Of a stretch of DNA of 63,755 bases, positions 34,238 through 53,765 are shown in pieces. How positions within the stretch are numbered: position 1 is the first letter of the stretch; each line of letters opens with the position of its first letter. The translations under genes and the position numbers were made by a program. The notes beneath the pieces were generated by a model. The model was given only the letters and a program-made list of their open reading frames with translations, did not search any database and was not told the DNA's origin. The stretch is from Candidatus Komeilibacteria bacterium (GTDB lineage: Bacteria; Patescibacteriota; Patescibacteriia; UBA1558; UBA10009): positions 1 to 63,755 of the forward strand of contig JAPLWM010000016.1 of assembly GCA_026396575.1 (NCBI GenBank). Direction: 5' to 3'.

Positions 34238-35839
34238 ATGGAAACCTTAAGAAAACAGCTTGCCTCGGCTTTAACCGCCAGCTTAACGGATTTAAATCCG
34301 GTTTTTAAGGATGTAAAAGTTGAAGTTGACTATCCGGCCATTGGGCAATTCGGCGATTATACCTCCAACATTGCTTTAAAAGCGGCTAAAATACTTAAAA
34401 TTTCGCCCCAGTCCGTGGCCGAGGAATTGATTTTAAAGCTGAAAAATCTTAAGGGACTTAATGGTATTTTTGAAAAAATTGAAACAGCCGGCCCGGGGTT
34501 CATCAATTTTTATTTAAGCCAAGCTTATTTAAGCGCTCAAGCGGATAAAATCCTGTCTTTAAAAGGCGCTTATGGCCAGTTGAAGCCGCGAGGCAAGGCT
34601 AAAAAGATTCAGTTGGAGTTTATCAGCGCCAATCCGACCGGCCCATTAACCATCGGCAACGGCCGGGGCGGTTTTTTTGGCGATGTTTTAGGCAATGTTT
34701 TTAAGCAGTGCGGCTATGGCGTAGTTAAGGAATATTTAATCAACGATGCCGGCAAGCAGATTGAGGTATTGGGACACTCGGTGTTGCAGGATGAGCAAGC
34801 CCTTTATAAGGGCGACTACATAACCGAGCTGCATAAAAGATTGCAAAAGTTTAATGGTCCGGCTAAGGTTGGCGCTCGGGCTGCTAAAATTATTTTGGTT
34901 GAGCTGCTTAAAGCAACGATTGAGCAGGGGATGCGGGTGCGTTTTGATCGGTGGTTTTCCGAAACCAAGGAGTTGAGAAAAACCAAGAAGATTGAAAAAG
35001 TTATTGCCTGGTTGAAAAAGAAAAATTATCTTTACCAAAGCGAAGGCGCTTGGTGGTTTAAAGCTACGGAGCGTGGCGATACCCGCGATCGGGTCTTGGT
35101 AAAAGGCAACGGCGAGTTTACTTATCTGGCCAACGACTGCGCTTATTTGGTGAATAAGTTTTCCGAAAGAAAATTTGACCGGGTCATAAATATTTGGGGA
35201 GCGGATCATCACGGCGATGTGCCGGGTTTGTTGGCGGCCGCCGAAGCGCTGGGCTATAAAGGCAGGCAGGAAATTATTTTAATGCAGTTCGTCAGATTGT
35301 TTAAAGAGGGCAAAGAGGTGCGGATGTCCAAACGTTTGGGCACTTACATAACTATGGACGAATTGCTTAAAGAAGTGGGGCACGACGCCGCCAGATTTTT
35401 ATTTTTAATGTATTCCAATAATACGCATATTGATTTTGACTTGAACGCGGCCAAAGAGAAATCGGAAAAGAATCCGGTTTATTACGTGCAGTACGCTTAT
35501 GCCCGGCTTTCCGGAATTTTAAAACAAGAGGCGATTGCCAAGGGCAAGCAAGGAAAAATTAAGGCCCTAGCTTACGGCAACGGGCAGGAGTTGGCGCTGA
35601 TTAAATCACTCTTAAGGTATCCTGAAGTTTTGGAAGAAATCATTATCGGTTATCAGGTGCAAAGGCTGCCTCAATTGGCTTTGGAAATAGCCGAAAAGTT
35701 CCATGATTTTTATAATCATTGCCGGGTAATAGACCGGGATAAGGTTGATTGGCAAAGAGTCGCTTTGGTTAAGCTTACGCGCAAGGTTTTAGGAGAGGTT
35801 TTGGCAGTAATTGGCGTGGCCGCGCCGGAAAAAATGTAA
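34238..35839 (+). CDS. argS: Arginyl-tRNA synthetase
   Basis: FGDYTSN, GPGFINF, SANPTGPL(T)IGNGRG, GADHHG, MSKR, NPVYYVQYAYAR. Confidence 0.97.
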   Translation: METLRKQLASALTASLTDLNPVFKDVKVEVDYPAIGQFGDYTSNIALKAAKILKISPQSVAEELILKLKNLKGLNGIFEKIETAGPGFINFYLSQAYLSAQADKILSLKGAYGQLKPRGKAKKIQLEFISANPTGPLTIGNGRGGFFGDVLGNVFKQCGYGVVKEYLINDAGKQIEVLGHSVLQDEQALYKGDYITELHKRLQKFNGPAKVGARAAKIILVELLKATIEQGMRVRFDRWFSETKELRKTKKIEKVIAWLKKKNYLYQSEGAWWFKATERGDTRDRVLVKGNGEFTYLANDCAYLVNKFSERKFDRVINIWGADHHGDVPGLLAAAEALGYKGRQEIILMQFVRLFKEGKEVRMSKRLGTYITMDELLKEVGHDAARFLFLMYSNNTHIDFDLNAAKEKSEKNPVYYVQYAYARLSGILKQEAIAKGKQGKIKALAYGNGQELALIKSLLRYPEVLEEIIIGYQVQRLPQLALEIAEKFHDFYNHCRVIDRDKVDWQRVALVKLTRKVLGEVLAVIGVAAPEKM

Positions 35840-35870
35840 TATCGGATAACATTATACATATCGGATAGGG

Positions 35871-35896
35871 GATTCCCGGGAAACCGGGAATCTTTT
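35871..35896 (+). terminator. Terminator after argS
   Basis: gattcccgg-gaaa-ccgggaatc-tttt. Confidence 0.8.
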
Positions 35897-36022
35897 ATTT
35901 TAGGCCTAAAATAGTAATATCGGATAGCTATTTAAGGCATTATTGGATTAAAAAGAAATATCGGATAGCCGATATGGTAGATTTTTCCAATGTTGTTTGC
36001 CGGGCCGTTTTGCCTTTGACGT

Positions 36023-36135
36023 GTCATTGCGAGCCCCGAAGGGGCGTGGCAATCCCGATGTTAATGGTATTAATAACGGGATTGTGGAGCCTGTCCCGAG
36101 CGATAGTGAGGGATCGCGCGGCTCCTCGCAATGAC
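36023..36135. repeat. GTCATTGCGAG...CTCGCAATGAC REP-like element
   Basis: 11-bp perfect terminal IR with internal hairpins. Confidence 0.8.
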
Positions 36136-36250
36136 AGTGCAGGCAAAACGGCCCTTGCAGGGATCTTGTAAAGGGTTAATCATGCGGGGTTTATTTTATA
36201 GGTTTTATGCGGGCGCTTGCGCCCTATTAATTTATGGCTTGGTTTTCTAT

Positions 36251-36325
36251 ACCCCCACCCAACCTCCCCCTAAATTAGGGGGAGGAGGAAATTCCCCTCC
36301 TAGATTAGGAGGGGTTAGGAGGGGT
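36251..36325 (+). repeat. C/G-run hairpin REP
   Basis: Near-identical to 3646-3720. Confidence 0.85.
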
Positions 36326-36547
36326 AAGTTTTTATTTTTCAACAGGCAAAATCAAAAATCAGGTCCTTGTGGAGTAGGTAAGTCTTCTATAATGTGGATA
36401 AGTTTTTTTGAAGATTTTACCGATATATACTATATTATGCGAAAACCCTATTACTTAGGGCAATTTTCCGCTTGATTTCTTGATTTTTTGATTCATTGAA
36501 AGGCCTATTTGACATGTTTAAAAGCTCTGTAAAAATGGTTGAAAAAA

Positions 36548-36587: not shown

Positions 36588-39500
36588 ATGCTTAACAAAA
36601 AAGAACTAAAACAAAACCATGTATCCCACGAAGCTTTAAAAGCGAAGGGGGAGCAGAACCAGCCAGTTCAAACCGTTGATGATTTAGATCGCTTTGTATC
36701 TCTTACGGAAGCTTCGGGCTTGTGTTCTTACTCCCAGGAATATCTTTCCTTGCTGGCCAGAAAAGGTTTAATCGGGGCGGTTAAAATGGGACGCAACTGG
36801 GTAATTACCCGTAGGGTCCTTTTTAGTTACATTCAAGGGCATGCCGAGGATCTTAAAGGCAACAATCGGGGCAGGATTATGGCGGCCCAGGAAAAAGTCA
36901 GGGAGTTTTTGGAAAACAACATTTTTACCATCCGCCTTTCCGACTTAGCCAAAAGAGGATTGGCCGCTGCTAAGTTGGGCTTAAAACGCGGTTGGCAGAA
37001 TTTGCCCGGTTTAACCAAGAACGCCTTTAAGCAATCGGTTGGCACAACCCGCCAGGCGGCTGATACCGTGAGCCGGGTTTTTACTCCGCTGGTTTTAAAG
37101 AGGGCTTTGGCAATTTTGATTTTAACCGGTTTTGCCGCTTTAAGTTTTATCATCTCGCCGGTGGCGGCCAAGTACTACAAAAAAGATTTTGATTTGATTG
37201 CCAAATTCGCCAGCGCTACCGTGGGCCGTTCCTTGGCAGCCGGAAGTAAAAGTTTTCAGGACACCGTAAAAATTTACGAGGATACGATTGCCTTTGTTAA
37301 AAAACCAAATGTTGCCGATGTAAAAATTACCGGAAAATATTTAGCGCGCGGCTTTGCCGATTTAGGCAAAGATATTTTAGTGGGTTCGGTTTTTTTGGCC
37401 AATGATTTTTCCAATAAATATTTAGACACGGCTGTTTTAAAACTGGCGCGGTTTTCCGAATCAGCCGGACAAGTTTCCAAGCTGCTTGTTTCGCCAACCA
37501 ACGTCAGGGATATTTTAGCCGTTGCCGCCGAAACAAAATTAAATTATTTTGATTTTCAAAATTTTATCGGTCAGCTGGCAGCGACGCATAATTATGCGTC
37601 GTTACATATTTTTTCGCCTTTAATTGATTCTTACGCGGAGCTGGGCGAGCGCGTCAAATTGCTGGCGCAAAATAAATTGCAGCCGGCAATTTTCGCGGTT
37701 AGAAATTCTTTCAACCGGGGAATAATTAAATTGGCGCAGCGGAAAACCATTCAACCGCAGGTAGCCGGTGTTTATGAGATACAAGAAACAAGTAATAATT
37801 TCCAAGTAACAAAAAATACCCAAATTTCAAATTTCAATTTTCAAGCATTTTTAACGGCTGTTAAAAATTCATTAAAAGATAATTTTAAAACCGGACAAAC
37901 GCTGGTTGCCCAACTTGGGGAATTATTCGGTAAAGCGCCGGCAAAGTTTATTGCTTTCTTGCAAAATAGCAATGATCGGCCGCAAATTTTAGCCGGGTTG
38001 TTTAAACGGGTCGGCGACGGTTTAGCCGATCTGGCCAATCTTTCTTTTGATAAATTTTCCCGGCAACTGGCTAGGGATAAGTTTTTAGCCCAGCTGGCTT
38101 ATCACAATATTTTTTATCCCGACACCCGGCTGGTTAGCAACAAAAACTTTTTAACTCGCGAAGAAGCGGTTCAATTATTTGGGCAAATCGGCCAAAATAT
38201 TACTTACATTACCAATGCCGAGGGCAAAATAGTCGGCATTGTCGGCCCTAAGGGTTTAGCCGGGCTAGCCGGACCGGCAGGGCCAGCTGGAGCAAAGGGC
38301 GAAGCCGGACTGCCAGGAATTCAAGGCCCGCCCGGCGGACCATTTAACGGCAATACCACCCAATACGGTTCAACCACTGTCTATAACAATAGCACAGTGG
38401 TTCAGAGTTTATCGGCCTTGGACAGCATGTCGGTTAAAAACGGCTTGGGCGTGGGCGGCAACTTAACCGTGGCCGGCAGCGCGCAATTCGGCACCAACGC
38501 TAATAATACTTTTTTGGTGGTTGGGCCGGCCACTTTTAACAACAGCTTAACCGCCGGATCTTTAAGCACCGTCGGGGAAGCCACCATCGGCACCACCCTG
38601 AAGGTGACGGGGGTTTCCACTTTTGCAGGTAATATTGCAGTGGGCGGCATGGCCACCATTACCGCCTCAACCGGCGATTTTAATACCCAAGGCAATGTAA
38701 CCATTGGCGGAACTTTAAATGTCGGCGGCAGCCAGTTTGGCGCTACGACCACGCTTTCCGCTACCGGAACAAACACCATTTTAACCGTCAGGCAGGGTGG
38801 AACAGGGGACTTGTTTAATTTGTATGACGGCGGAACAGAGGTAATGACGGTAACGAATGGCGGTTATGTTGGCATCGGCACAAGCACGCCCGATGTACTT
38901 TTGGCGATAGGCAACGGGCAATTAAAAGTTGCGGCTGCCGGCCCGGTTACTTCGCAAGGGCATACTTTGCGTTTAAACGTTAATAATTTTTCTTCGGCTA
39001 AAGTTCCAGCGCCTCTTATTAACGGCAAATACGACGCTTTCGGCATTATAGACATGTTTCCTTCTGGAAAGTTTATTATTGTTTACCGCGAAGGCACTGA
39101 TCACGCAACCACCCTTAATGGTGTTATAAGAATTCAGACATCCGTTAATCAGGGTGGCAGTTGGAGCGCTCCGGTAACAATTGCTTCCGCAAATGGAATT
39201 GATTTGCGCAATATCGGCGGAGGCATTACGCCAACGGGCCGTTTAATTGTTTTTTACAGCAGATATAATGCTGTTAATCCGCAAAGGGCGGAATATATTT
39301 ATTCCGATGATGAGGGCGTAACTTGGTCGGCCCCAATTTCCATGGATAGGGGCGAAGATTATAACAGCTTTGTGGCTTACGGCAAAACAATTGCCATTGG
39401 CAATAATACCATTATGGCATCTTTTTATGGCGCGCAAAATGACGGCATTTACACTGTTGCCGTGGTTAAAAGCGCTGATAACGGCAAAACCTGGGGCAAG

Positions 39501-40337
39501 CCGATTATTACGGGAGTAAGCGCCAATCATCAGGAGTACGTTGAAGGTTCTTTTGTTTATCTGGGGGGAAATTACATAGTGGGCTTAGCCAGGGATGATG
39601 GCGGCGGTTATCCACCATACTTGCTCCACCAATTTGTAAGTTCCGATAACGGCGACACCTGGACGGATCAGGGCGATGTTGATCTTAAGGCGCCTGTTGG
39701 TTCTAGCGGCGGCATTAAAATGCCCTGGCTTAGCACTTATATTTCCAATGGCAAACGGATAGCGGCGGCTTATTATTATGATCGTTCTTACAATGAATTA
39801 AGGGCTATTTACGGCGCTCCCGAAGATATTATTAAGGGAGTTTCCGGCTGGAAAAGCGATGACATAATAACCATTGCTCATAATTACAACCCGGTTTCCA
39901 ATGGGAGCGGATATCCAACCGTTGTTCATCCTTATGACAGCCCCGAAGGGCTTGGCTGGTTTTACGAGGAACTAACGGCAACGAAAACGCAAATGGTTTT
40001 CTTTAAGGTGCCGATAGACCGCTCAATGTTTAACAGCCCCATGGTTATCAATGTGGCAACTTCAACCATTAACGCGCCCGCTTTAAAAGTTGTCGCTACA
40101 TCCTCCATTGACTTAATCCAATTTTCCCAGCAAGGCACTGGTAAAATTTTAGGGCTTTATGACGGCGTTGCTTCATCAACTATAGATAAAAATTTGGCTT
40201 TTGGCGTTTATAATGGCGGTTATGCCAAATTGTACGCCACTTCCACGCAAACCGCCTTGCGGATTCAGGATTCAGCAATCTTCAACCGGCAATATTTTAG
40301 AATTGTACAGTTCTTCAACTTTGGCTTTAAGCGTTAA
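36588..40337 (+). CDS. 5' part of giant surface protein: HTH, TM, collagen-like stretch, BNR/Asp-box sialidase-like domain
   Basis: SLTEASGLCSYSQEYLSLLARKG HTH; 11 GXY triplets 38244-38342; four SxDxGxTW-type boxes; frame broken by 7-nt duplication at 40261-40274. Confidence 0.85.
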   Translation: MLNKKELKQNHVSHEALKAKGEQNQPVQTVDDLDRFVSLTEASGLCSYSQEYLSLLARKGLIGAVKMGRNWVITRRVLFSYIQGHAEDLKGNNRGRIMAAQEKVREFLENNIFTIRLSDLAKRGLAAAKLGLKRGWQNLPGLTKNAFKQSVGTTRQAADTVSRVFTPLVLKRALAILILTGFAALSFIISPVAAKYYKKDFDLIAKFASATVGRSLAAGSKSFQDTVKIYEDTIAFVKKPNVADVKITGKYLARGFADLGKDILVGSVFLANDFSNKYLDTAVLKLARFSESAGQVSKLLVSPTNVRDILAVAAETKLNYFDFQNFIGQLAATHNYASLHIFSPLIDSYAELGERVKLLAQNKLQPAIFAVRNSFNRGIIKLAQRKTIQPQVAGVYEIQETSNNFQVTKNTQISNFNFQAFLTAVKNSLKDNFKTGQTLVAQLGELFGKAPAKFIAFLQNSNDRPQILAGLFKRVGDGLADLANLSFDKFSRQLARDKFLAQLAYHNIFYPDTRLVSNKNFLTREEAVQLFGQIGQNITYITNAEGKIVGIVGPKGLAGLAGPAGPAGAKGEAGLPGIQGPPGGPFNGNTTQYGSTTVYNNSTVVQSLSALDSMSVKNGLGVGGNLTVAGSAQFGTNANNTFLVVGPATFNNSLTAGSLSTVGEATIGTTLKVTGVSTFAGNIAVGGMATITASTGDFNTQGNVTIGGTLNVGGSQFGATTTLSATGTNTILTVRQGGTGDLFNLYDGGTEVMTVTNGGYVGIGTSTPDVLLAIGNGQLKVAAAGPVTSQGHTLRLNVNNFSSAKVPAPLINGKYDAFGIIDMFPSGKFIIVYREGTDHATTLNGVIRIQTSVNQGGSWSAPVTIASANGIDLRNIGGGITPTGRLIVFYSRYNAVNPQRAEYIYSDDEGVTWSAPISMDRGEDYNSFVAYGKTIAIGNNTIMASFYGAQNDGIYTVAVVKSADNGKTWGKPIITGVSANHQEYVEGSFVYLGGNYIVGLARDDGGGYPPYLLHQFVSSDNGDTWTDQGDVDLKAPVGSSGGIKMPWLSTYISNGKRIAAAYYYDRSYNELRAIYGAPEDIIKGVSGWKSDDIITIAHNYNPVSNGSGYPTVVHPYDSPEGLGWFYEELTATKTQMVFFKVPIDRSMFNSPMVINVATSTINAPALKVVATSSIDLIQFSQQGTGKILGLYDGVASSTIDKNLAFGVYNGGYAKLYATSTQTALRIQDSAIFNRQYFRIVQFFNFGFKR
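40127..40267 (+). repeat. 141-bp exact direct repeat, second copy at 42219-42359
   Basis: Base-by-base identical. Confidence 0.95.
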
Positions 40338-43300
40338 AAACACCGGCCAAACAATTTTATCCGCTTTGCCAAAAATTTCGGCGCCGGCTTTATTGATTCA
40401 GCCGTACAACACTTCTTCTTTCAGCCAAACAACTTCCACTATGGCGCTGGTTAACGCCGCTTCCGGCTTTACCGGCGATTTGCTTTCCTTGCAGGTTAAC
40501 GGTTCAACCAAGTTCAGGATTGATTACCAGGGCAATGCCTCTTATTACAGCACTTCGGTTTATGGCGGCGATATAATTCCCGGTTTGGATAATACTTATG
40601 ATATCGGCAGTTTGGCAAACACCAAGCGCTGGCGCGATGTTTCCTTGTACCGCGATTTAAATATTGGCGCCGTTAATACCGCCGATAAATTAGTGCGCTT
40701 AAGTTCCACTTCCATCGCGGTTTACAATACCGATTTAACCATTCAAACGAATAATTCTAAAAATTTACTTTTAAATCCGAGCGGCAATAAAGTGGGGATC
40801 GGCTCTTCAACTCCGGCCGCAACTTTAGCCATCCAAAGCCAGCCGGGCCAAACTTATGATTTATTCCGCATTGGCACTTCTTCAAATTTAATTTTAGCTA
40901 CAACAACCGACGCTTCGTTCTTTAAAGTTTCGGCTGGTGGAAATACAACTATCGCTGGCAAAGCTATAAATCCAACCTGGGTCGGCCAATTATCCACCAG
41001 CTCTTTGGATTTTACTAGAGGAGTTTATGTGGTTGGCAATTACGCTTACATGACAGCTCACGACAGGGATGCTTTGGTTATAGTGGATGTTTCCAATCCA
41101 ACAAGCCCTACTTTTATTTCCGAATTAAGGCCTGATGGCGCCAATGGCAAGCTTGACGGCGCCAGAACGATTGTTGTCCAAGGCAAATATGCTTACATAA
41201 CCAGCCAAGACCGTGATGCTTTATCAGTTGTTGATATTTCCAATCCTTACAACCCGGTTTTTGTTTCCGAATTAAGGCCGAATGGCGCCAATGGATTATT
41301 GGATGGCATTTATGATATTTTTGTTTCGGGCAATTATGCTTATGTGGCAAATGTTTCCAGGGATTCTTTAGCCATTATTGATATTTCCAATCCTTACAAT
41401 CCGGTTTTTGTTTCCGAAGTTAAAAATCCCAATGGCAATAACGAACTTGACGGTGCTGCAGGGGTGTTTGTTTCCGGCAGGTATGCCTATGTAACTGGTT
41501 ATAGCAGGGATTCTTTTGTGATTATTGATGTTGCCAATCCGGCTTCTCCAAGATTTGTTTCGGAACTTCATCCCAGTGCGGTTGCGTTTGGACCGCTTGA
41601 TGCCGTTAGAGGGCTTTTTGTAAGGGGTAAATACGCTTATGTAGTTTCGGAACAAAGAAACGCCTTAACGATAATTGATATTTCCAACCCAACAAGCCCA
41701 ACTATAGTATCCGAAGAGCGCGGTCCGCGTCCGGGAAGTGGAACCGGAGATTATTCGTTAGGCGGCGGTTCGGGAATAGTTGTTTCCGGCAATTACGCTT
41801 ACATTGCCTTGGAACGGGGATCCTTTGCCGTAATTGATATTTCCAATCCCTTGGATCCTGTTTTTATTGCTGAAGTTAAAAATCCTGGTGGCAATAACGA
41901 ACTTGCCGGCGCTTTTGGATTATTCGTTGCCGGCAATTACGCCTATACTGCCAATGATGGCAATGACTCTCTTTCAATTATTGATATTTCGGGGCTTACG
42001 GTAAATAATGCAGAAATCGGCACTCTTAAAGTTGGCAATATGGTGGTTGATTCCATGGCGCAGTTTAACAGCGGCATGCAAATCCAAGGCGGATTAAATG
42101 TTGGCAAGGGCGCCATGTTTGGCGGACCGGTTGCCATTAATGTTTCCACTTCCACTTCGGTTGGAATTTCTGCTTTGACGGTTACGGCTACCTCTTCAAC
42201 TGATTTGATTGCCTTTGGCCAGCAAGGCACTGGTAAAATTTTAGGGCTTTATGACGGCGTTGCTTCATCAACTATAGATAAAAATTTGGCTTTTGGCGTT
42301 TATAATGGCGGTTATGCCAAATTGTACGCCACTTCCACGCAAACCGCCTTGCGGATTCATAAAGGCGCCAGTAATTATTTAACCGTTTCTAATAGTGGTT
42401 TGGTTGGCATAGGAACAACCACTCCCAAATCCGTTTTATCCGTTTCCACTCTGGCTCAAGTTTCCGGAAATACCAAATTATTTACTGTTGCTTCAACAAC
42501 CGGCGCCAGTTTGCTTACGGTTTTGGCTAATGGCAACGTGGGGATTAGCACCAGCACGCCTTCTTACAAATTAGCCGTTCAAGGAACCTCTAATAGTGTT
42601 GGCGCAATCGGCGCCGATCAGGTAACTAACGGCCTTTTTTCAACAGATCCTTCCGCCAATTGGACATATTCCGGAACTTGGTCTTGGAGTTCTTCCAGAA
42701 TGAACTATACCGGCACTACCGGCGGGGTCGCGGCTGTAACCATAGATAACGGCGGCACCGGCTATGCCGTTGGCAACACTTTAACCATTACGGGCGGAGG
42801 CGGCAATGCTGTTTTAACAGTTTCTACGGTTTCTTCGGGAGTTATTACCGCTGTAACCATTGCTTCAGCCGGAACTGGTTACGCAGTTGGCGCTGGCAAA
42901 ACTGTAACCGGCGGAGCCGGCTCCGGCGCGACTTTTTCCATTTCCCGCCTGTCAGACAGCGCCAATACATTATCCCAAAACGTTTCCGTAATTGCCAGCA
43001 GCACTTATGAGGTTGTTTACACGGTGGATTACCGTACGGCCGGAGAAGTTAATGTTACCTTAGGCGGAGTTTCAGGACACCGCATTAGCACTCTTTATAA
43101 TATTGTAAGCCAAATTATTACCACCAACGATACCGGTAACTTAATCTTTACCCCGACCGCTGATTTTTCCGGCAGGATTGACACTGTTTCCGTAAAGCTT
43201 TTAACCAAATCAACCGCTATTGCTTCTTTTGCCAATTCCAACGGCACCACCGGTATTGAAGTAAGATCGGGCGGTTCTAATTTCTACAATACTTTTATCG

Positions 43301-46300
43301 GCGTTAATGCCGGAATAAGTACTTATAATCCATCTTCTGTTTACGGCTTCTATAATTCAGCTTTTGGCAGCCAGGCTCTTATGGGTAATACTACGGGTAC
43401 CTATAATTCAGCTTTTGGCAGCCAGGCTCTTATGGGTAATACTACGGGCGAGGCTAATACGGCCATTGGGGCGGATACGCTTCAATTCAATACCATCGGC
43501 AAAACTAATATAGCAGTTGGAGCCGCTACCTTGAAATATAATACCACTGGCTCAAATAATACCGCTGTTGGTTATGGCACGCTTTTTTATAATACTACCG
43601 GCTTAAATAATACCACTTTTGGCTATGGCGCCGGCTACATTCAAACCACCGCTTCAAACAATATTTATTTAGGCTATCAAGCGGGTGATAACATTACTAC
43701 CGGTTCCAACAATATCGTTATCGGCTACGATATTAACGCGCCTTCGGCAACGGCTTCCAATCAGTTAAATATCGGCAATCTTATTTTTGGCACAGGCATA
43801 GACGGTACCGGTAATATTTTAAGCACGGGTAAAATCGGCATTGGCACCACTACTCCTGCTGCTAAATTCGCGGCTTCTTCAACCAGCAATATCGTTGCCA
43901 TGTTTGACCAAAGAGGCACTTCGGATATTTTAAGGTTGAATGACGCTGGCACGACCGTGTTTAAAGTCCAAGACGGAGGATATGTTGGAGTGGGAACCAA
44001 TACTCCAAAATCCGTGCTTTCTGTTTCCACTTTAGCTCAAGCTTCCGGAAATACTAAATTATTTACCGTGGCTTCAACCACCGGTGCTTCACTATTCCAA
44101 GTTTTAGGCAATGGAAATACAAGCATAAACGGCAATACTGTTATTACCGGCAATGCTACAACTACCGGCAAGTATTATGTTGGAGGTGATTTTAAAACAA
44201 ACGCCAATGCCACGACAACCGGCAGTTACTATATTGGCAATTCATTAACAGTCGCTGGCGCTTCGCTTTTTAGCAATCCTGCCACATTTAATTCTACAAT
44301 CAACGGCCAAACAATTTCCAGCGCTGCCAACTTTACCGGCTCGCTTACAACTGCCGGCAATATTAATACTACCGGCGGTGTAATTCAAACCAACTCCGTA
44401 ACCAGAATAGATAACTCCGGCAATCTAACCAACATCGGCACCATTACTTCCGGCCTTATCAATGGCCAAACTATTACATCGGCTGCCAACTTTACCGGTT
44501 CTTTAAATGTTGCCGGCAACACTACTCTGCAAGGAACATTGGCTGTTACTGGAAATCAAACTTTTGCCGGCAATTTTTCCGTGGGCGGCAGAGCAACCAT
44601 TACCGCCGCTACCGGCAACATACAAACCAGAGGCAATATTTACGCCACCGGCACATTAGCAATTGACGGACAATCAATTTTTAGAGATAAGATTGGCATC
44701 GGCACAACTTCACCCAAATCAATGTTGTCTGTTTCTACCTTGGCTCAACAAGCTTCAAATTACAAACTATTTACCGTTGCTTCCACCACCGGCGCTTCGC
44801 TGTTTCAAGTTCAAGGCAGTGGTTTGGTTGGCATTGGCACTACCACTCCTGTTGCCAATTTAACAGTTGCCGGTTCAGTTTCAGGCAGATCATTTAACGG
44901 CAATACTGCTGCCAGCTGGGGCGGACCATGGTTTGCCACAGGAACAAAGGACTTGCTGGCTTGGTATCCGCTAGGCAAGCGCGACAGCCAAAATGGCAAA
45001 ATGAGCGATATTTCGGGCAATGAACATCATGGCACCATAACAGCTGGCTCCAGCGCTGGTTTTGTGGCTGACTGGTCTGGCAGAATGGAATCGGCTTATG
45101 ATTTTGACGGAGCCGATACCAAAATTGATACGGGTTCGGATTGGATTGGCACACAGGCAGTTACTATTTCGGCTTGGATTTATGCGGATGGGTGGGGAGA
45201 AAGTGACAACGGGATGATTCTTTTTAATAATAAATTATTTATAGGGGTAAAATTAACAACAGATGAAGGTTATGTTGAAAATATTTGGGCAAGCAATAAT
45301 AATGCTTCTATTATTCATTCAGCAAGTTATTCAATAACTTTAGGAAACTGGTATCATGTTGTGGTTACAAGAAATTCAGCAGGAACAGGAAATATTTATA
45401 TAAATGGAGTTCAGTCAGGTGAAGCAAATCATAATTTTGGAACTCCAGAAGCAGGTACTACAAATGTAATAATTGGAAATAGCACAGGACAAACAGTAAC
45501 CTTTGACGGCCGCATTTCCGATTTAAGAGTATATAATAGAGTTTTATCAGCCGGTGAAGTTGCCGGATTATACAATGGTTCCGAATCAACTTATGCTACC
45601 CGCGTAGGCATTGGCACCACCACTCCTCAATCGGTGTTAAGCGTTACCACCGCTTTACAGCAGGCCGCTTCTACAAAATTATTTACAGTGGCTTCCACCA
45701 CCGGCGCTACTTTGTTCCAAGTATTAGGCAACGGCCAAACAATAGTTGGCTCTGGCGGCGCTGCCGGTTCCAACAAATTGACGGTTAATGGCAACTCGGT
45801 ATTTATAGGCAATGTAGGTATCGGCACCACCACGCCCGCGGCTAAATTATCTTTAGCCAGTCCAGGCTCGTTAGCTTCCGTGTTCCAGGTTGATGTTCCT
45901 TCTACTTATACCGGCAATCTTATAGATTTAAAAATAGCTTCAAGTTCCCGCTTGGTATTTAAAGAGAGCTCCAGCGGTTTAGGGCGTTTAGGAGTCGGCA
46001 CTTCCACTCCTTCAGCCAGAGTGTCCATTTCCGCTACCGCTCAAACAAGCCTGCCTTTACTTAGAGTTGCTTCAACCACTAATGCCACTTTATTAACCGT
46101 AGAATCCACTGGCAAAGTTGGCATCGGCTTAAGCAATCCTTCCGCTTATTTGCACGTTCAAGGCACTAACGAACAACTGCGTTTAAGCTACAATTCAACC
46201 GCTTACTGGTCCAACACCGTTAATGCTTCTGGAACTGCCACATTATTCGCCACCGGCAGGGACCCGGGATTTAATTTCCAAGTCAGGGACACAACCGCTT

Positions 46301-49300
46301 TAACGGTTAACGATGTTCAAATTACTTCCAACGTGCCTCTGCAAATTGCCCAATCAGGCGATGTTGGAGTTGCCGGAGATATTTTAATGTCCAACGGCAC
46401 CGCTTCCTATATAACAGGGGAGAATCCGTTAACTATCAGAACATATAATCCGTCGGCTAGCGTTGATTTAACCTTAACCGCGGCCAACAATGGCGTAGTG
46501 GTAATAGATGACGCTTTGGAAATTTACGGCACCACTACCATTGCCTTAACCCAAACTTCGGCTAACGCCGTTAATATTAAAGACCATTGGGGAACTAATA
46601 TTTTTAATATAAATAATTTAACCACTTCTTCACTGCGAACCTTTACTTTCGGGCCTAATAATGGAGCAGTGGCTACGGCTACCGGCATTCAAATCGGCTA
46701 TGGCGGAATTTGCGTTGATAACGACGGCAATTGCCAGGCCTCTACCACCGGCCGCGTTACCGCCCGTTCTTTCGGTACCGCCGGATCGGATGTGGCCGAA
46801 AATTATCCGTCGGTAGAGCATTTGGCAGCCGGTGATTTGGTTATGGCCGATCCCAATAATCCCGGCTATATTATTAAAACAACAGGCGAATACGATAATA
46901 ATGTTATCGGCGTAATCTCCGAAACTCCCGGCATTATTATGGGTTCCGAAGTAATCGGCTATCCCGTGGCTTTGGTTGGCAGGATTCCAACAAAAGTTTC
47001 TAATGTTAATGGCGAAATCAAGCCGGGCGATTTATTAACCGTTGCGCCTATTGCCGGTTATGCCATGAAGTTCAACGAAGGCGATACTTCCAAAATTATC
47101 GGCACGGCTTTGGATTCATTTAACGGCGCCGGCGCTTCAACCGACGGCCTTATTTCCATGTTTGTTAATCCGGATTACAAGTCGGTTAATAATCCTCAAA
47201 CATTCGGCTTAATTACCGATGGCCAGATTGCCACTAATGCCGCTATTTCCGATATTAAGCTGGCTACTATTTCCACTAAAGGCAAAATCATGGTAAGCGC
47301 TTTGCCGGTGGAAATCGCTTTGTTGCAGGGCGATACCCAGACCTTTACCGGCAATTATATTTTCGGCAAAGATGCCAATACTGCCGACTTGGTAGTTTTG
47401 AATGCCAAATTAGGCAGCGATATCAAGTTTGCCGCGGACAACTTCTATAATATAGGAAGCGCTGCCGCCTCGGCTGCCAATATTTATACCAAACAATTGA
47501 ATTCTTCCAAGATTGTGGTGGCCGCCGACATGGCCAATATGCAAAATATGAATCTTGACGATTACGGTTTGTATTTGGCCGCTTCATCGGGTAACGCTCT
47601 ATTTGGTGATAATGCGATTGTCGGTGCGCGCCGTGGCGCGCCCGTACAGGTAGCATTGCCCGAGTATCCTGATTTCGTAATGAACGGCGGCGACCTTTTA
47701 GTTAACGACGATTTGGGAGTGCGCGGCGATTTATACGTGGTCGGCGATATCCGCGTGGCCGGCGCCATTGAATTTGCCAAAGAGGGCATAGCGCAAATGA
47801 TGAATCTAACAGGTGAATATTTAATAAGCGGTAATATAGTGGTTGTTAATGCCAGCGGAACTTCACAAGGCAAGGTGGCTGCTTTGGCTAATTCCAGCGA
47901 AATTATTGGTGTGATTGGTACAAATTCTGCAGCGATTTTTGGACAAAATAATCATGAAAACAATTTACCTGTTATTGTTTCGGGCATGGCAATCGTTAAT
48001 GTTTCAGCGGAAAATGGATCTATCAAGAGAGGCGATAAATTAACCACTGCCGATTCGGCCGGTTACGCCCAGTTGGCTACCCGCCCGGGCGCCGGAGTTT
48101 TAGGCATTGCTGCCGAAGATTTAAGCGAAGGCCAAGGCAAAATAAAAGTTTTGGTGGATTTGGGAACCTATTTTGCGCCGCTGGCCAAGGTAATTACCGT
48201 GGGTTCGTCCGGCAGCGATTATAAAACCATTACCAAGGCTTTAAACTCCATTAATGATAATTCCAATGAAAATCGGTATTTAATCAAAGTAGCGCCGGGC
48301 GTTTATAACGAACAAATTATCTTGAAAGATTACGTGGACGTGGTGGGCGAAGGCAGCGGTTTGGTAACCGTTAAGAGCGATAAATCGCCGGTAGTAATCG
48401 CTTCCGCCAATGCCCGTTTGGAAGGCGCCACGATTTCTTCAAACAATTCTTCAAGCGAGCCGATGATTGTTTCCATTAATAACGATAATAAGGAAATAAT
48501 CTTGAAGGATTTGAAATTGGATGCCGCTACCGATAATCCGGCCGTGGGCGTAAGCATTACTGGAAATTCGGGCAAAATCATGTTAAGCGAATTAACTTTT
48601 AATTCAAACTTCACCCAAGGCATTGTTAATTTGGGCGCCGCCGATGTTTCGGTGATGAATTCCGATTTAAGCTCAATTATCGGCACGGCTTTAAGCGCCC
48701 AAAACGGCCGGGTTTTAACTTATAATAATAACTTTAACGGCGTGTTGGGCGATATTAACGTGGCTCAAGGCGCTCGCGTTGAATCCACCGGCGACCAGTA
48801 TGCCAAAGTCAGCAATGCCGGCGTATTCTTGGATAAAACCAACCGCGGCAAAGTTGACAGCGATTACATTGACTATGGTTGGTTAGCCGAGCAATCAGCC
48901 GGTTTGCAAATCAATATTTCCGCGGGCCAGGGCTATGTTAACGGCGTTAAGGTTAATACGGCGGCCGTTGGCAATTTGGCCGTAAATGCTTCTTCCACCA
49001 ATTATATTTTTATGACGGATGAGGGTAATGTTTTGGCTACAACTACCCCCAACCCCCTCTTTAATCTCCCCCTTGATAAGGGGGAGAAAGAGAGGGGGTC
49101 GGTTATCATCGCTACGGTGCAAACTTCCATTTCGGCCATTACTTCCATTTCCAATGAACGCGCCAACGAAATTACCGTGGCCAAGCAGGGCGGCAAATTC
49201 AGGACCATTACTGATGCCCTTAATTCCATAACTTCCGCTTCGGAACATAACCGTTGGACCATTAGAGTCGGCTCCGGCGTGTATAACGAACAAATTGTGT

Positions 49301-50619
49301 TAAAACCGTTTGTAGAGATAATCGGACAAAGTAAAGACAGCACGACAATTTTAGGTATCAATAAATCAGCTTTAGTTGCAGGAGTAAATGCCACAACAAC
49401 AGCAAGTGTTAAGGTTTCTAATCTTAAACTTTCCTTGGCCGGTGATATAACAGGTCAGGCAGTTGTATCAGCATCGTCAACTGATTTAACCTTGGAAGAT
49501 GTTAATCTTACTTGGTCAGGCAGTGAAGGCATTAATGGTACGGCGGTTGAGGTTAATGGCAACAGCAATATTACGATTAATCGGTTAAATATCAGCAATA
49601 TTGCTTATGGTATTGTAGCGACGCATAATTATGCGTCGCTACAGAATGGTTTAACTTTTGTTTCCACCTCTACCGTGGCCGTTTCCTATTCCACTATATC
49701 ATCATCTATCGCCGATATTAAAACGATTTGTATTAATACTACTACCAACCAGGATTGTGGCGCAGATGTACCGACGCATAATTATGCGTCGCCCAACATT
49801 ATTTCTTCCTATAACACCTTATCGGGAACAGGCACCAATTTTGAAGTAGCCAAGGGCACAATAATTTCTTCCGCCCACGATACCTACCTTAAATACACCG
49901 GTGAAGGCGAATTCCGGCAGAATGATTATTTTCGCAATAACAATAATCCAACGGCTTCATTATTCAACATTCAAAACGCCGGCTTTAATTTATTCAACGT
50001 TTCCGCTTCCGGCACCGTGGCCATTAATCCGCAGAATACAACAGGGGATAGCGTGGTTATCAGTTCGCCCACTGCTTCTTCTACTTTGACCGTGGTAAAT
50101 ACCGGCGCCGGCACGGCATTAAAGGTGGTTGGCAACGTGATTTTGACATCCGCCACCAGCGGTATTCCCGTGGTTTTATCGTCAGCCGGCGCCGAACTTA
50201 ACGTTGGCGCCCCCGGCGACACCATTAACCTTAATCTGGAAGGCGTGGTTTATAATTTCAAAGAAAACGTTAGAAAAGATACCATGTCGGCTTATTTATC
50301 CGCTCCTGTTTCCGGCGATCATATTTGGGGATCCTCTGCCAACGCCTGGTCGCCTTCGGAAAACATTACCGTGCTGGGCGTGAAGGTTCAATATTCCTGC
50401 GCCGACGGCGGCGTGTTGCAAATGGTTTTGAAAGATAAGAATGGCAATGTAATCGCCAATTTGGACGGATATTCCTGCGGCGGATTCTATAAGATTGAAC
50501 AGAATGATTTGCAATACCATTTAACGCCTGATGATGGCATGTATGTTGATGTTGTTTCCTCAACCGAGGGCGTAACCAATGTAACCGTGACGATTGAATT
50601 TGTGTATGATAATAGATAA
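40201..50619 (+). CDS. 3' part of giant surface protein: 7 LVIVD repeats, NTAxG repeats, LamG, DVAENY-type domain, two pectin-lyase-like modules
   Basis: Continuous ORF; true frame begins near 40268 (RIQQSSTG); joined gene would be 4,674 aa. Confidence 0.85.
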   Translation: MAFIMAVMPNCTPLPRKPPCGFRIQQSSTGNILELYSSSTLALSVKNTGQTILSALPKISAPALLIQPYNTSSFSQTTSTMALVNAASGFTGDLLSLQVNGSTKFRIDYQGNASYYSTSVYGGDIIPGLDNTYDIGSLANTKRWRDVSLYRDLNIGAVNTADKLVRLSSTSIAVYNTDLTIQTNNSKNLLLNPSGNKVGIGSSTPAATLAIQSQPGQTYDLFRIGTSSNLILATTTDASFFKVSAGGNTTIAGKAINPTWVGQLSTSSLDFTRGVYVVGNYAYMTAHDRDALVIVDVSNPTSPTFISELRPDGANGKLDGARTIVVQGKYAYITSQDRDALSVVDISNPYNPVFVSELRPNGANGLLDGIYDIFVSGNYAYVANVSRDSLAIIDISNPYNPVFVSEVKNPNGNNELDGAAGVFVSGRYAYVTGYSRDSFVIIDVANPASPRFVSELHPSAVAFGPLDAVRGLFVRGKYAYVVSEQRNALTIIDISNPTSPTIVSEERGPRPGSGTGDYSLGGGSGIVVSGNYAYIALERGSFAVIDISNPLDPVFIAEVKNPGGNNELAGAFGLFVAGNYAYTANDGNDSLSIIDISGLTVNNAEIGTLKVGNMVVDSMAQFNSGMQIQGGLNVGKGAMFGGPVAINVSTSTSVGISALTVTATSSTDLIAFGQQGTGKILGLYDGVASSTIDKNLAFGVYNGGYAKLYATSTQTALRIHKGASNYLTVSNSGLVGIGTTTPKSVLSVSTLAQVSGNTKLFTVASTTGASLLTVLANGNVGISTSTPSYKLAVQGTSNSVGAIGADQVTNGLFSTDPSANWTYSGTWSWSSSRMNYTGTTGGVAAVTIDNGGTGYAVGNTLTITGGGGNAVLTVSTVSSGVITAVTIASAGTGYAVGAGKTVTGGAGSGATFSISRLSDSANTLSQNVSVIASSTYEVVYTVDYRTAGEVNVTLGGVSGHRISTLYNIVSQIITTNDTGNLIFTPTADFSGRIDTVSVKLLTKSTAIASFANSNGTTGIEVRSGGSNFYNTFIGVNAGISTYNPSSVYGFYNSAFGSQALMGNTTGTYNSAFGSQALMGNTTGEANTAIGADTLQFNTIGKTNIAVGAATLKYNTTGSNNTAVGYGTLFYNTTGLNNTTFGYGAGYIQTTASNNIYLGYQAGDNITTGSNNIVIGYDINAPSATASNQLNIGNLIFGTGIDGTGNILSTGKIGIGTTTPAAKFAASSTSNIVAMFDQRGTSDILRLNDAGTTVFKVQDGGYVGVGTNTPKSVLSVSTLAQASGNTKLFTVASTTGASLFQVLGNGNTSINGNTVITGNATTTGKYYVGGDFKTNANATTTGSYYIGNSLTVAGASLFSNPATFNSTINGQTISSAANFTGSLTTAGNINTTGGVIQTNSVTRIDNSGNLTNIGTITSGLINGQTITSAANFTGSLNVAGNTTLQGTLAVTGNQTFAGNFSVGGRATITAATGNIQTRGNIYATGTLAIDGQSIFRDKIGIGTTSPKSMLSVSTLAQQASNYKLFTVASTTGASLFQVQGSGLVGIGTTTPVANLTVAGSVSGRSFNGNTAASWGGPWFATGTKDLLAWYPLGKRDSQNGKMSDISGNEHHGTITAGSSAGFVADWSGRMESAYDFDGADTKIDTGSDWIGTQAVTISAWIYADGWGESDNGMILFNNKLFIGVKLTTDEGYVENIWASNNNASIIHSASYSITLGNWYHVVVTRNSAGTGNIYINGVQSGEANHNFGTPEAGTTNVIIGNSTGQTVTFDGRISDLRVYNRVLSAGEVAGLYNGSESTYATRVGIGTTTPQSVLSVTTALQQAASTKLFTVASTTGATLFQVLGNGQTIVGSGGAAGSNKLTVNGNSVFIGNVGIGTTTPAAKLSLASPGSLASVFQVDVPSTYTGNLIDLKIASSSRLVFKESSSGLGRLGVGTSTPSARVSISATAQTSLPLLRVASTTNATLLTVESTGKVGIGLSNPSAYLHVQGTNEQLRLSYNSTAYWSNTVNASGTATLFATGRDPGFNFQVRDTTALTVNDVQITSNVPLQIAQSGDVGVAGDILMSNGTASYITGENPLTIRTYNPSASVDLTLTAANNGVVVIDDALEIYGTTTIALTQTSANAVNIKDHWGTNIFNINNLTTSSLRTFTFGPNNGAVATATGIQIGYGGICVDNDGNCQASTTGRVTARSFGTAGSDVAENYPSVEHLAAGDLVMADPNNPGYIIKTTGEYDNNVIGVISETPGIIMGSEVIGYPVALVGRIPTKVSNVNGEIKPGDLLTVAPIAGYAMKFNEGDTSKIIGTALDSFNGAGASTDGLISMFVNPDYKSVNNPQTFGLITDGQIATNAAISDIKLATISTKGKIMVSALPVEIALLQGDTQTFTGNYIFGKDANTADLVVLNAKLGSDIKFAADNFYNIGSAAASAANIYTKQLNSSKIVVAADMANMQNMNLDDYGLYLAASSGNALFGDNAIVGARRGAPVQVALPEYPDFVMNGGDLLVNDDLGVRGDLYVVGDIRVAGAIEFAKEGIAQMMNLTGEYLISGNIVVVNASGTSQGKVAALANSSEIIGVIGTNSAAIFGQNNHENNLPVIVSGMAIVNVSAENGSIKRGDKLTTADSAGYAQLATRPGAGVLGIAAEDLSEGQGKIKVLVDLGTYFAPLAKVITVGSSGSDYKTITKALNSINDNSNENRYLIKVAPGVYNEQIILKDYVDVVGEGSGLVTVKSDKSPVVIASANARLEGATISSNNSSSEPMIVSINNDNKEIILKDLKLDAATDNPAVGVSITGNSGKIMLSELTFNSNFTQGIVNLGAADVSVMNSDLSSIIGTALSAQNGRVLTYNNNFNGVLGDINVAQGARVESTGDQYAKVSNAGVFLDKTNRGKVDSDYIDYGWLAEQSAGLQINISAGQGYVNGVKVNTAAVGNLAVNASSTNYIFMTDEGNVLATTTPNPLFNLPLDKGEKERGSVIIATVQTSISAITSISNERANEITVAKQGGKFRTITDALNSITSASEHNRWTIRVGSGVYNEQIVLKPFVEIIGQSKDSTTILGINKSALVAGVNATTTASVKVSNLKLSLAGDITGQAVVSASSTDLTLEDVNLTWSGSEGINGTAVEVNGNSNITINRLNISNIAYGIVATHNYASLQNGLTFVSTSTVAVSYSTISSSIADIKTICINTTTNQDCGADVPTHNYASPNIISSYNTLSGTGTNFEVAKGTIISSAHDTYLKYTGEGEFRQNDYFRNNNNPTASLFNIQNAGFNLFNVSASGTVAINPQNTTGDSVVISSPTASSTLTVVNTGAGTALKVVGNVILTSATSGIPVVLSSAGAELNVGAPGDTINLNLEGVVYNFKENVRKDTMSAYLSAPVSGDHIWGSSANAWSPSENITVLGVKVQYSCADGGVLQMVLKDKNGNVIANLDGYSCGGFYKIEQNDLQYHLTPDDGMYVDVVSSTEGVTNVTVTIEFVYDNR
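43350..43448 (+). repeat. Intragenic tandem repeat, period 51 nt (YNSAFGSQALMGNTTGx)
   Basis: 48 identical nt in both copies. Confidence 0.9.
49045..49099 (+). repeat. C/G-run hairpin REP translated in-frame in the giant gene
   Basis: Encodes TPNPLFNLPLDKGEKERGS. Confidence 0.75.
49615..49642. repeat. 28-bp perfect GTAG palindrome in-frame in the giant gene
   Basis: gtagcgacgcataattatgcgtcgctac encodes VATHNYASL. Confidence 0.9.
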
Positions 50620-50634
50620 CATATCCCTTTCCAT

Positions 50635-50838
50635 ACCCCCTCCCAGCCTCCCCCTTTATATACCCCCTCTTAATCTCCCCCTAAGATAGGGGGAGAAAGT
50701 ATAGGAAGTAGGGGGAGAAAGTATAGGAAGTAGGGGGAGAAAGTATAGGAAGTAGGGGGAGGAGGCGCATCTTTTCCCCTCCTAGATTAGGAGGGGTTAG
50801 GGGAGGTAGTGTCGGGAGTAGAGGGGGCAGGGGGAGGT
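50635..50838 (+). repeat. Composite C/G-run REP containing three tandem 22-nt units
   Basis: tagggggagaaagtataggaag at 50687, 50709, 50731; direct sibling at 51450-51579. Confidence 0.85.
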
Positions 50839-51579: not shown

Positions 51580-51687
51580 AAAAACTATGAAACAGCAATT
51601 AAATAAATATCTACGCGTATATCTCATCATCACGGTAATAATTACCAACGCTTTTATAAACGTTAATTTTGTGATTGCCGCCGGCAC

Positions 51688-51828
51688 GCAAACCAATTCT
51701 TTGGATAAAGGCCTGATTGCTCATTTCCCCTTAAACCGCGCCGCCAAGCAAAGTTCCACCAAATTTGCCGATACTTCGCCTTATGCCAGAATCGGAACTA
51801 TTACAGCAGGCGCATCAGCCGGGCTTTC
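51688..51828 (+). repeat. 141-bp exact direct repeat, second copy at 52359-52499
   Basis: Base-by-base identical; both copies end at a frameshift. Confidence 0.95.
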
Positions 51829-53594: not shown

Positions 53595-53765
53595 AATGTT
53601 ACCGGTGCGTTTAATGGCCGTGCTTCCTACGCCAGCTTCTGGTCTTCCTTGCAGGATGAGGCTTTGTATACTTGGTCCCGGCTCTTGTACGTCAATTATT
53701 CTACCGTCTTTAGGGATACATTTAGTAAGAACTTCGGCTTCTCTGTAAGGTGTTTAAAGGATTGA
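53595..53765 (+). other. DGR variable region VR1 (putative)
   Basis: FWSS..Q....W.R.L......V.R....K..GFSVRCLKD scaffold; colinear 171 nt with VR2. Confidence 0.75.

Follow-up and report, generated by a model that had tools for sequence, protein, structure and literature searches.

Two long, overlapping open reading frames (ORFs) in the genome of a Candidatus Komeilibacteria bacterium raise a double question: are they one gene, and if so, what is a DNA-binding domain doing at the head of a giant surface protein? The locus lies at positions 36588-50619 of the window, by which we mean the whole stretch of DNA analysed (63,755 nt; positions 1-63,755 of contig JAPLWM010000016.1, assembly GCA_026396575.1). 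An earlier sequence-only reading had proposed a single 4,674-aa mosaic surface protein with a cytoplasmic helix-turn-helix (HTH) domain, interrupted by a tandem heptamer. Its ORF coordinates, the tandem GGATTCA and the fused 4,674-aa frame were all reproduced in our analysis. Our best explanation, which we regard on balance as probable when taken as a whole, is that 36588-50619 is one gene for a cell-surface fibre of approximately 4,630-4,675 residues, made by a cell of the CPR/Patescibacteria. The features that pose the question are as follows.

36588-40337, + strand: ORF1, 1249 aa, the 5' part of the giant fibre gene
40201-50619, + strand: ORF2, 3472 aa, the 3' part of the giant fibre gene
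40261-40274, + strand: tandem GGATTCA GGATTCA, the point of the +1 frame change

ORF2 occupies the +1 frame relative to ORF1, and the two ORFs overlap by 137 nt. When one copy of the GGATTCA tandem (GGATTCAGGATTCA) at 40261-40274 is deleted, a single open frame of exactly 4,674 aa results. The final 23 codons of ORF1, past 40267, are out-of-frame read-through, and the first 24 codons of ORF2 are a conserved linker read out of frame. ORF2 is free of stop codons across 3,472 codons, and a scan for hydropathy and export signals found that it has no signal peptide or transmembrane (TM) helix of its own.

Among the homologues of ORF2, P0004 (4,338 aa) is 58% identical over 74% of ORF2, and P0006 is a partial protein of 2,128 aa from Ca. 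Komeilibacteria. Both proteins also align with ORF1, from the N-terminus to residue ~780, at 48% identity. In both, the N-terminus of HTH, TM helix, stalk and collagen repeat and the modules of the ORF2 type stand in one frame, which is the architecture that had been proposed from the letters of this locus. The P0004 locus (L001) is also syntenic, with the arginyl-tRNA synthetase (ArgRS) gene (65% identical) followed by the giant gene and then by LamG genes. The joined frames of the orthologues, the conserved synteny and the long open ORF2 lacking an export signal indicate, by sequence comparison, that ORF1 and ORF2 are one gene, at least until very recently. At approximately 14 kb, the giant gene takes up 1.4% of the ~1-Mb genome.

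What, then, broke the frame? The tandem heptamer sits exactly where homology switches frame, and a tandem 7-mer would be expected only ~0.008 times by chance in the 137-nt overlap. It also borders one of two exact repeats of unusual length in the window.

40127-40267, + strand: 141-nt exact repeat, copy 1, with the doubled heptamer at its 3' edge
42219-42359, + strand: 141-nt exact repeat, copy 2, a native long-type linker after the LVIVD propeller, in frame
51688-51828 and 52359-52499: second 141-nt exact repeat, within a LamG gene

The flanks of the first two copies are only ~65% identical. The long-type linker of copy 2 is also found after the second propeller of P0006, and in comparison with both orthologues the first linker holds a 46-residue insert built of the 141-nt block. 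The lesion can also be read, from the sequence, as a block of 145 nt that was copied from the paralogous linker further downstream. Deletion of 145 nt (40128-40272, with CAGCAA flanks) gives a frame of 4,628 aa, and the junction left by that removal, 'LIQFSQQSSTGNILELYSSSTLALSVKNTGQ', is colinear with P0004 and P0006.

The length of these repeats was informative. Among the 40 contigs of the assembly, an overlap of exactly 141 nt links 29 pairs of ends, and exact repeats do not exceed this length anywhere in the assembly. The two longest internal repeats of the genome are both of this length and both in this contig, the next longest being 140 and 125 nt. Overlaps of this kind are the signature of a de Bruijn assembler whose last word length was 141, which is the default of MEGAHIT. 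Since unitigs should stop at a shared 141-mer, some later step must have carried the contig through the repeats.

The LamG gene at 51587-53765 is split into three ORFs, and its orthologue in L001 (17085-19307) is one intact ORF of 740 aa. In a tblastn comparison, the frame changes of the LamG gene fell at ~51826 and ~52500, the 3' ends of the two copies of the second repeat. The frame changes at 40268, ~51826 and ~52500 thus coincide with three of the four repeat 3' ends, in genes that are intact in L001. That three of four word-sized repeat ends carry frame-breaking indels is strong evidence for an artefact of assembly or joining, and we consider it likely that the frame break at 40268 arose in this way rather than by mutation. 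The contig would have been carried through a word-sized intragenic repeat, and the join would have left an indel. Exact repeats of the assembler's word length flag untrustworthy frames in contigs of metagenome-assembled genomes.

Some observations weigh against an assembly origin. A 7-nt duplication cannot arise in a de Bruijn graph as such, and an extra joining step is required. Exact-pattern scans with sequence just upstream and just downstream of the junction found no second assembly of this population among metagenome contigs. Other broken frames occur nearby, away from the 141-nt repeats, the C-terminus of a 2,151-aa ORF being one example, and genuine decay of the surface-protein cluster is possible. 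The 2,151-aa ORF in question (55099-61554; DUF2341/LamG) has a C-terminus that is out of frame relative to that of the 52659-53765 ORF: it ends '...QAQADAT|TMLPV', compared with '...QAQADAADWRGTTQGDKL', and no 141-nt repeat is present there.

The rival that survives best, although we hold it to be unlikely, is that the cell truly carries the frameshift, be it a recent mutation or a phase-variable allele, produced by gene conversion from the downstream linker or by slippage of the heptamer. The cell would then make a short fibre of 1,249 aa tipped by the pseudaminidase-like propeller, with ORF2 silent unless some cells of the population regained the long fibre by a 7-nt slip. A tandem duplication of 7 nt is an ordinary mutational event, and graph assemblers are not normally a source of such duplications; the 145-nt block is bounded by CAGCAA microhomology, and neighbouring surface-protein genes likewise contain broken frames. 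Moreover, ORF1 alone retains the anchor, the stalk, the trimerization region and an enzymatic head. Yet the repeat length is exactly the assembler's word length, and the one further repeat of this kind in the genome also interrupts a gene, at both ends. ORF2 is undecayed across its 3,472 codons, with 58% identity to the orthologue, and a heptamer present only twice is a poor substrate for slippage.

The second part of the question concerns the head of this protein, in which two features precede the stalk.

36693-36857, + strand: winged HTH of the excisionase/MerR (HTH_17) type, aa 36-90, predicted to be cytoplasmic
37104-37169, + strand: single TM helix, aa 173-194, with K/R residues on its N-side, assigned from hydropathy

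The HTH matched Pfam HTH_17 (PF12728) at E 0.0016 and 19.1 bits, below the cut-off of 27, and the match spans positions 3-49 of the 51-position profile; several homologues carry a precomputed PF12728 label. The domain was modelled by AlphaFold2 with an alignment of 21 N-termini. Residues 36-90 formed a beta-alpha-alpha-beta-beta-alpha winged helix with a predicted local distance difference test (pLDDT) score of 94-96, followed by long helices. The best local matches in Foldseek were TraN of pIP501, BldC, RdfS, Pukovnik Xis, RacA and MerR proteins, all of them DNA binders, with TM-scores (target) of 0.7-0.77, root-mean-square deviations of 1.5-2.5 Å and probabilities of 0.96-0.99. TraN was also the best PDB match of the HTH at the sequence level. 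The residues conserved within the family, Y52, R58, G60, G68 and W71, are those of the Xis/MerR DNA-binding consensus. Together, the sub-threshold Pfam match, the confident model and the fold matches bear out the N-terminal HTH that had been proposed.

The segment at aa 173-194 is the sole strongly hydrophobic one of the whole protein, and neither ORF has another TM helix, in agreement with the single membrane crossing of the earlier reading. The predicted topology is bitopic, with the N-terminus inside and the C-terminus outside the cell. The helical stalk that had been placed after the membrane is supported in part: helices were modelled as far as aa 215, where the model ends.

This head is not peculiar to one organism. 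Among 118 giant homologues found through their ectodomains, 27 begin with the HTH, and in 25 of these 27 the only TM helix of the protein comes after the HTH. When 401 Patescibacteria genomes were searched with a profile, the HTH was detected in 79 genomes and in 69 of 320 genera, in open frames that span 65 to 8,840 aa; of 44 family ORFs, 35 have a TM segment after the HTH. Among 1.84 billion cluster representatives, searched exhaustively, 5,891 proteins matched at E<=1e-10, with the module typically at residues 1-145, and the HTH-TM module therefore has thousands of members. The source genome has one copy of it. Literature searches on this architecture in CPR bacteria returned nothing relevant, and a description of the HTH-fibre fusion or of the HTH-TM module was not found in them.

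The module also occurs as a gene of its own. In one family locus (L042, 751-1497), a separate 248-aa HTH-TM gene ends 3 nt before an HTH-less giant gene (P0016), an arrangement that is a split form of the HTH-fibre fusion. In two others (L008 and L010), small HTH-TM genes lie just upstream of HTH-giant genes.

The sequence upstream of the giant gene offered a candidate target for the HTH.

35839-35975, + strand: four ATATCGGATA sites that form the distal cluster, directly behind the ArgRS stop codon
36548-36556, + strand: putative extended -10 element TGTTATAAT, recognized by its sequence and its conservation in L001 and L002
36560-36575, unstranded: proximal operator-like palindrome TATCGG-ATAG-CCGATA, from 4 nt after the -10 box to 12 nt before the ATG

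The ATATCGGATA site occurs seven times in the 1-Mb genome, and five of these copies are within 740 bp upstream of the giant gene. The last distal site is a full 16-nt palindrome, TATCGGATAGCCGATA (35959-35974), which has only two copies in the genome, at 35959 and 36560, both upstream of the giant gene. The position of the proximal copy, 4 nt past the -10 box, overlaps the expected transcription start. An identical 'TGTTATAATTAATATCGGATAG' and the distal site cluster are kept in L001 and L002, in spacers that have otherwise diverged.

Enrichment of the motif was assessed in 39 other loci of the family, drawn from across the Patescibacteria, by comparing the 15.4 kb upstream of the HTH with the remaining 224 kb. 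TCGG-N4-CCGA was found 15 times upstream and six times elsewhere, a 33-fold enrichment (Fisher p=5e-14), and the half-site was likewise enriched upstream of the HTH (p=5e-17). In the same loci, five composition-matched control palindromes had no match upstream. The exact core TCGGATAGCCGA recurs in unrelated genomes, often as TATAAT-TAATA-TCGGATA(A/G)CCGA, and the locus of an HTH-less giant gene (L041) contains no motif in 14 kb. A reading of the palindrome as an RNA hairpin was rejected: the promoter-proximal sites in L001-L003 are half-sites only, which identifies the signal as DNA.

The HTH-TM head is the sole element common to the motif-bearing genes, and the simplest reading is that the head binds the operator. 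Judging from motif position and family distribution, the most likely role of the HTH head is to bind this operator and, while anchored in the membrane, to repress or tune the promoter of its own gene. The sequence-only reading had left the coupling of a surface protein to a DNA-binding domain unexplained; that description no longer holds, as the HTH is a member of a large family whose genes have a conserved operator at their promoters.

Several points count against this interpretation of the head. The E-values of the Foldseek matches are weak (0.07-0.5), though the local fit is good, and the Pfam scores for HTH_17, as well as those for the Collagen, Peptidase_G2 and Pectinesterase domains of the ectodomain, are all under the curated cut-offs. 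The topology was derived from hydropathy alone. The full palindrome is present in only 15 of 39 loci, and any form of it in 23 of 39. The assignment of the HTH as the binder of the motif is deduced from this pattern, and another factor is conceivable.

We also considered the possibility that the HTH is not a transcription factor at all, but a protein-binding or anchoring module comparable to that of RodZ, or a non-regulatory DNA tether comparable to RacA, the palindrome being bound by something else. The cytoplasmic HTH of RodZ binds MreB, and HTH folds have been reused for protein contacts, as in that case; RacA is among the fold matches, and 16 of the 39 family loci have no recognizable motif. 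We nevertheless regard this account as distinctly improbable. The motif tracks the HTH gene across unrelated ectodomains, from 73 aa to >4,000 aa in length, it abuts the -10 box, and it is essentially unique in the genome to the promoter of the giant gene. The HTH-less giant homologue of L041 has no motif, and the residues conserved in the family match the Xis/MerR DNA-binding consensus. Chromosome-wide tethering of the RacA kind was rejected, as the palindrome is limited to the promoter region of the giant gene.

Barely credible is the last rival, that the two ORFs are joined in translation by a programmed +1 frameshift in the overlap or by quadruplet decoding by an 8-nt-loop tRNA (ACAA): ORF2 does lie in the +1 frame relative to ORF1, an in-frame TTGT is found within the overlap at 40230 and the tRNA is real (55.5 bits against the Rfam tRNA model), but the four earlier in-frame TTGT words of ORF1 (five in total) would shift too, TTG-T is not avoided genome-wide (9.9% of TTG codons precede T), homology puts the frame change at the heptamer and not at TTGT, a known slippery motif is absent, and the unbroken orthologues require no shift. 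Quadruplet decoding was rejected on the lack of TTGT avoidance and the frame change at the heptamer, and a programmed frameshift on the missing slippery site and the intact orthologues. The tRNA gene itself (26284-26357, - strand) has an 8-nt anticodon loop, CU-ACAA-GA, for which ARAGORN reported the anticodon 'acaa'; it has a short variable loop and no G3:U70 pair.

Returning to the intact fibre with an operator-binding head, we propose the following working. Inside the cell, the winged HTH (residues 36-90) would be followed by one TM helix (aa 173-194), and outside the cell the helical stalk and a collagen triple helix would trimerize the protein. Beta-fibre segments with VGIGTxxP linkers would then bear swappable heads (pseudaminidase-like propeller, LVIVD propeller, beta-roll and LamG lectin). 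More distally, a self-cleaving chaperone domain resembling that of phi29 gp12 would precede ~1,270 residues comprising two beta-helix-like modules and a conserved tip. The fibre may bind, and perhaps trim, glycans of a host bacterium; the roles in host attachment and glycan cutting are suggested by the domain content. The membrane-tethered HTH would bind TATCGGATAGCCGATA, overlapping the transcription start of its own gene, and the further sites upstream, and this binding would let the cell limit or tune the production of a very costly protein.

We further speculate, while giving the idea only a small chance of being correct, that the fibre is a one-molecule contact sensor, in which the state of the ectodomain is relayed through the TM helix to three clustered HTH heads on the operator of their own gene. 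The relevant states would be trimerization, self-cleavage of the G2 type, load and the binding of host glycans. If this were so, attachment to a host would switch the fibre gene and any other genes that bear the operator. Since translation of this 14-kb gene begins with the HTH, the head might even work in cis, on the gene copy from which transcription is still under way. A DNA-binding head, a membrane helix, a head-swapping fibre and the fibre's own operator would form a testable wire from the cell surface to gene control. The locus bears on how ultra-small episymbiotic bacteria recognize and hold their hosts, and on how they control enormous surface proteins.

The ectodomain on which these proposals depend contains the following features.

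38244-38342, + strand: collagen-like repeat, GXY x11, aa 553-585, uninterrupted triplets
39012-39857, + strand: six-bladed BNR/Asp-box propeller, a homologue of the PA2794 sialidase/pseudaminidase
40984-42036, + strand: seven-bladed LVIVD beta-propeller (PF08309), Pfam 183.7 bits in seven stretches, with GxYAY cores
43288-43845, + strand: NTAxG/NSAxG repeats, a phage-/adhesin-like beta-roll by comparison with PHROGs
45106-45564, + strand: LamG/concanavalin-like lectin, Pfam Laminin_G_3 (PF13385), 88.6 bits, profile positions 1-151 of 151
46738-47205, + strand: Peptidase_G2-like intramolecular-chaperone ('DVAENY') domain
47698-48135, + strand: second beta-barrel, akin to the G2-like domain as well as to phage cement proteins (Pfam XM1_gp53, E 2e-4)
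48148-49080 and 49123-50070, + strand: two modules, each with an N-terminal motif of the pectinesterase/pectin-lyase type, weak matches
50071-50616, + strand: conserved C-terminal domain, the distal fibre tip, conserved only in P0004 and P0005 (E 1e-103 to 1e-105)

The sequence-only reading had listed the collagen repeat, a sialidase-like Asp-box propeller, seven LVIVD repeats, NTAxG repeats, LamG and a DVAENY-type domain in this order, and all of these were recovered, the LVIVD and LamG modules with the Pfam scores given above. The collagen repeat implies a trimeric fibre and is also present in P0004 and P0006; it scored 18.5 against the Pfam Collagen cut-off of 27.2. The VGIGTxxP linker motif has 12 copies, one in ORF1 and 11 in ORF2. 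The Asp-box propeller scored 54.4 bits against Pfam BNR_2 (cut-off 31.4) and matched PDB 2w38/3h6j at E 2e-31 over 280 aa. It contains four Asp boxes resembling S-x-D-x-G-x-T-W, and the alignment to 2w38 retains a 'YR..T.H' stretch. In both orthologues, an LVIVD propeller takes the position of this pseudaminidase-like propeller, and the presence of different propellers at one position argues that heads are swapped as cassettes. The NTAxG region, which is common to 52 homologues, matched a PHROG of virion structural proteins (E 1e-20) and one of tail spikes (E 6e-12).

Profile and model evidence identifies the DVAENY domain as an intramolecular chaperone of the Peptidase_G2-like kind; its putative site of self-cleavage, Ser|Asp, is S2196|D2197 of ORF2 ('GS|DVAENY', 46786-46806). 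The D-x-A-E-x-Y motif is invariant in nine sequences. As a single sequence the region had no match in the PDB, and a profile was needed: the profile of the domain (A4) matched phi29 gp12 (6qz9, E 3e-4) and aligned the Asp of DVAENY with residue 1 of the autocleaved gp12 fragment 3gqh. The best Foldseek match of the AlphaFold2 model was 3suc, pre-mature gp12 (E 1.8e-4), with a model core pLDDT of only 77-87. Pfam Peptidase_G2 (PF11962) scored 13.6-15.2 bits against a cut-off of 25, and three of the nine aligned relatives matched it weakly. Neither ORF has a Peptidase_S74 match.

Approximately 1,270 residues lie downstream of the putative cleavage site. The similarity between the G2-like domain and the second beta-barrel is visible within P0004. 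The two pectin-lyase-like modules of the sequence-only reading fared less well than the other domains: each has a weak N-terminal pectinesterase-type match, and an above-threshold family match was not obtained for either. The matches cover the N-terminal cap only (Pectinesterase 25.6 bits against a cut-off of 27; 1gq8, E 0.025; NosD, E 5e-4). The C-terminal tip had no family or PDB match, and searches of NCBIfam and PHROGs yielded no further information on it, on the stalk or on the beta-helix modules.

A number of short repeats were observed within and around the gene. The palindrome GACGCATAATTATGCGTC ('THNYAS') has three in-frame copies in the giant gene and four in the genome, and the gene has one in-frame copy of a hairpin, CTCCCCCT..AGGGGGAG, that has 11 copies in the genome and is otherwise intergenic. 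These palindrome and hairpin copies are at 37583, 49620, 49773 and 49066. P0004 lacks these inserts; in P0005, another insert ('VRAQNFAPLPA') occupies two of the loops concerned. Immediately 3' of the giant gene, at 50687-50761, a 22-nt unit (TAGGGGGAGAAAGTATAGGAAG) occurs in three exact tandem copies. Hairpins of G/C runs flank the gene on both sides (36252-36326 and 50663-50808), and the members of one flanking pair share 94% identity across 35 nt.

The spacer that separates ArgRS from the giant gene contains, at 36003-36153, a long inverted repeat, GGCCGTTTTGCC...CATTGCGAG / CTCGCAATG...GGCAAAACGGCC, with no Rfam match at the gathering score. Related arms occur in L001 (3240-3360), and the words ATTGCGAG and GCAATGAC occur five to six times in the L002 spacer (1362-3295). 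A perfect DnaA-box word, TTATCCACA (here as TGTGGATAA, 36393-36401) lies ~190 nt upstream of the giant gene; it has 33 copies in the genome against ~7.6 expected, and is also present just upstream of other HTH-giant genes (L005, L007 and L010).

How does the giant fibre compare with known systems? Transmembrane transcription regulators such as ToxR, TcpP and CadC were surveyed by Demey et al. 2023 (PMC10269533), in a survey that does not mention HTH_17, MerR or Patescibacteria. Like these regulators, the giant fibre is predicted to link, in one chain, a cytoplasmic DNA-binding domain through a single TM helix to an extracytoplasmic part. ToxR-like regulators are thought to act on promoters from the membrane, and the position of the operator suggests the same for the fibre. 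They differ in having an OmpR-type DNA-binding domain, where the fibre has one of the Xis/MerR type (HTH_17), and a small sensor domain, where the fibre has an outer part of 4,400 residues that is predicted to be trimeric. A further distinction from the ToxR-like class is that the probable target of the fibre is its own promoter.

At the level of the HTH itself, BldC, Xis, RdfS and TraN of pIP501 share the minimal MerR-like winged HTH fold. These are small soluble proteins, whereas the HTH of the giant fibre heads a membrane protein and defines a subfamily of its own, with invariant Y52, G68 and W71.

The outer part, predicted to be trimeric, resembles two kinds of trimeric beta-fibre with swappable binding heads: phage tail fibres or spikes, and the mosaic adhesive trimer (MAT) fibres that Caulton et al. 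2024 (PMC10769870) described in Bdellovibrio bacteriovorus. MAT fibres carry the consensus V-G-x-G-x-x-x-P-x-x-x-L, a motif to which the 12 VGIGTxxP copies of the giant fibre correspond. A self-cleaving chaperone domain is a further shared feature, putative in the giant fibre, as is the recognition of surface glycans of another bacterium, which its domain content suggests. MAT fibres begin with a signal peptide and a conserved beta-rich N-terminal domain of ~130 aa, in contrast to the HTH, linker and TM anchor seen here. In their S74 subgroup the chaperone is of the S74 type and C-terminal, whereas that of the giant fibre is G2-like (phi29 gp12) and internal, and the giant fibre is four to five times longer.

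Two of its modules have individual counterparts. The chaperone domain of the phi29 pre-neck appendage protein gp12 (3suc, 3gqh and 6qz9) is matched by profile and model, and the Asp-x-x-Glu spacing is kept in the giant fibre. In gp12, the G2 domain forms the C-terminal 163 aa and is discarded, whereas in the giant fibre 1,130 more residues follow the domain. Pseudomonas aeruginosa PA2794 (2w38 and 3h6j) shares the six-bladed Asp-box propeller, with 280 residues aligned, and its homologue is one cassette inside the fibre.

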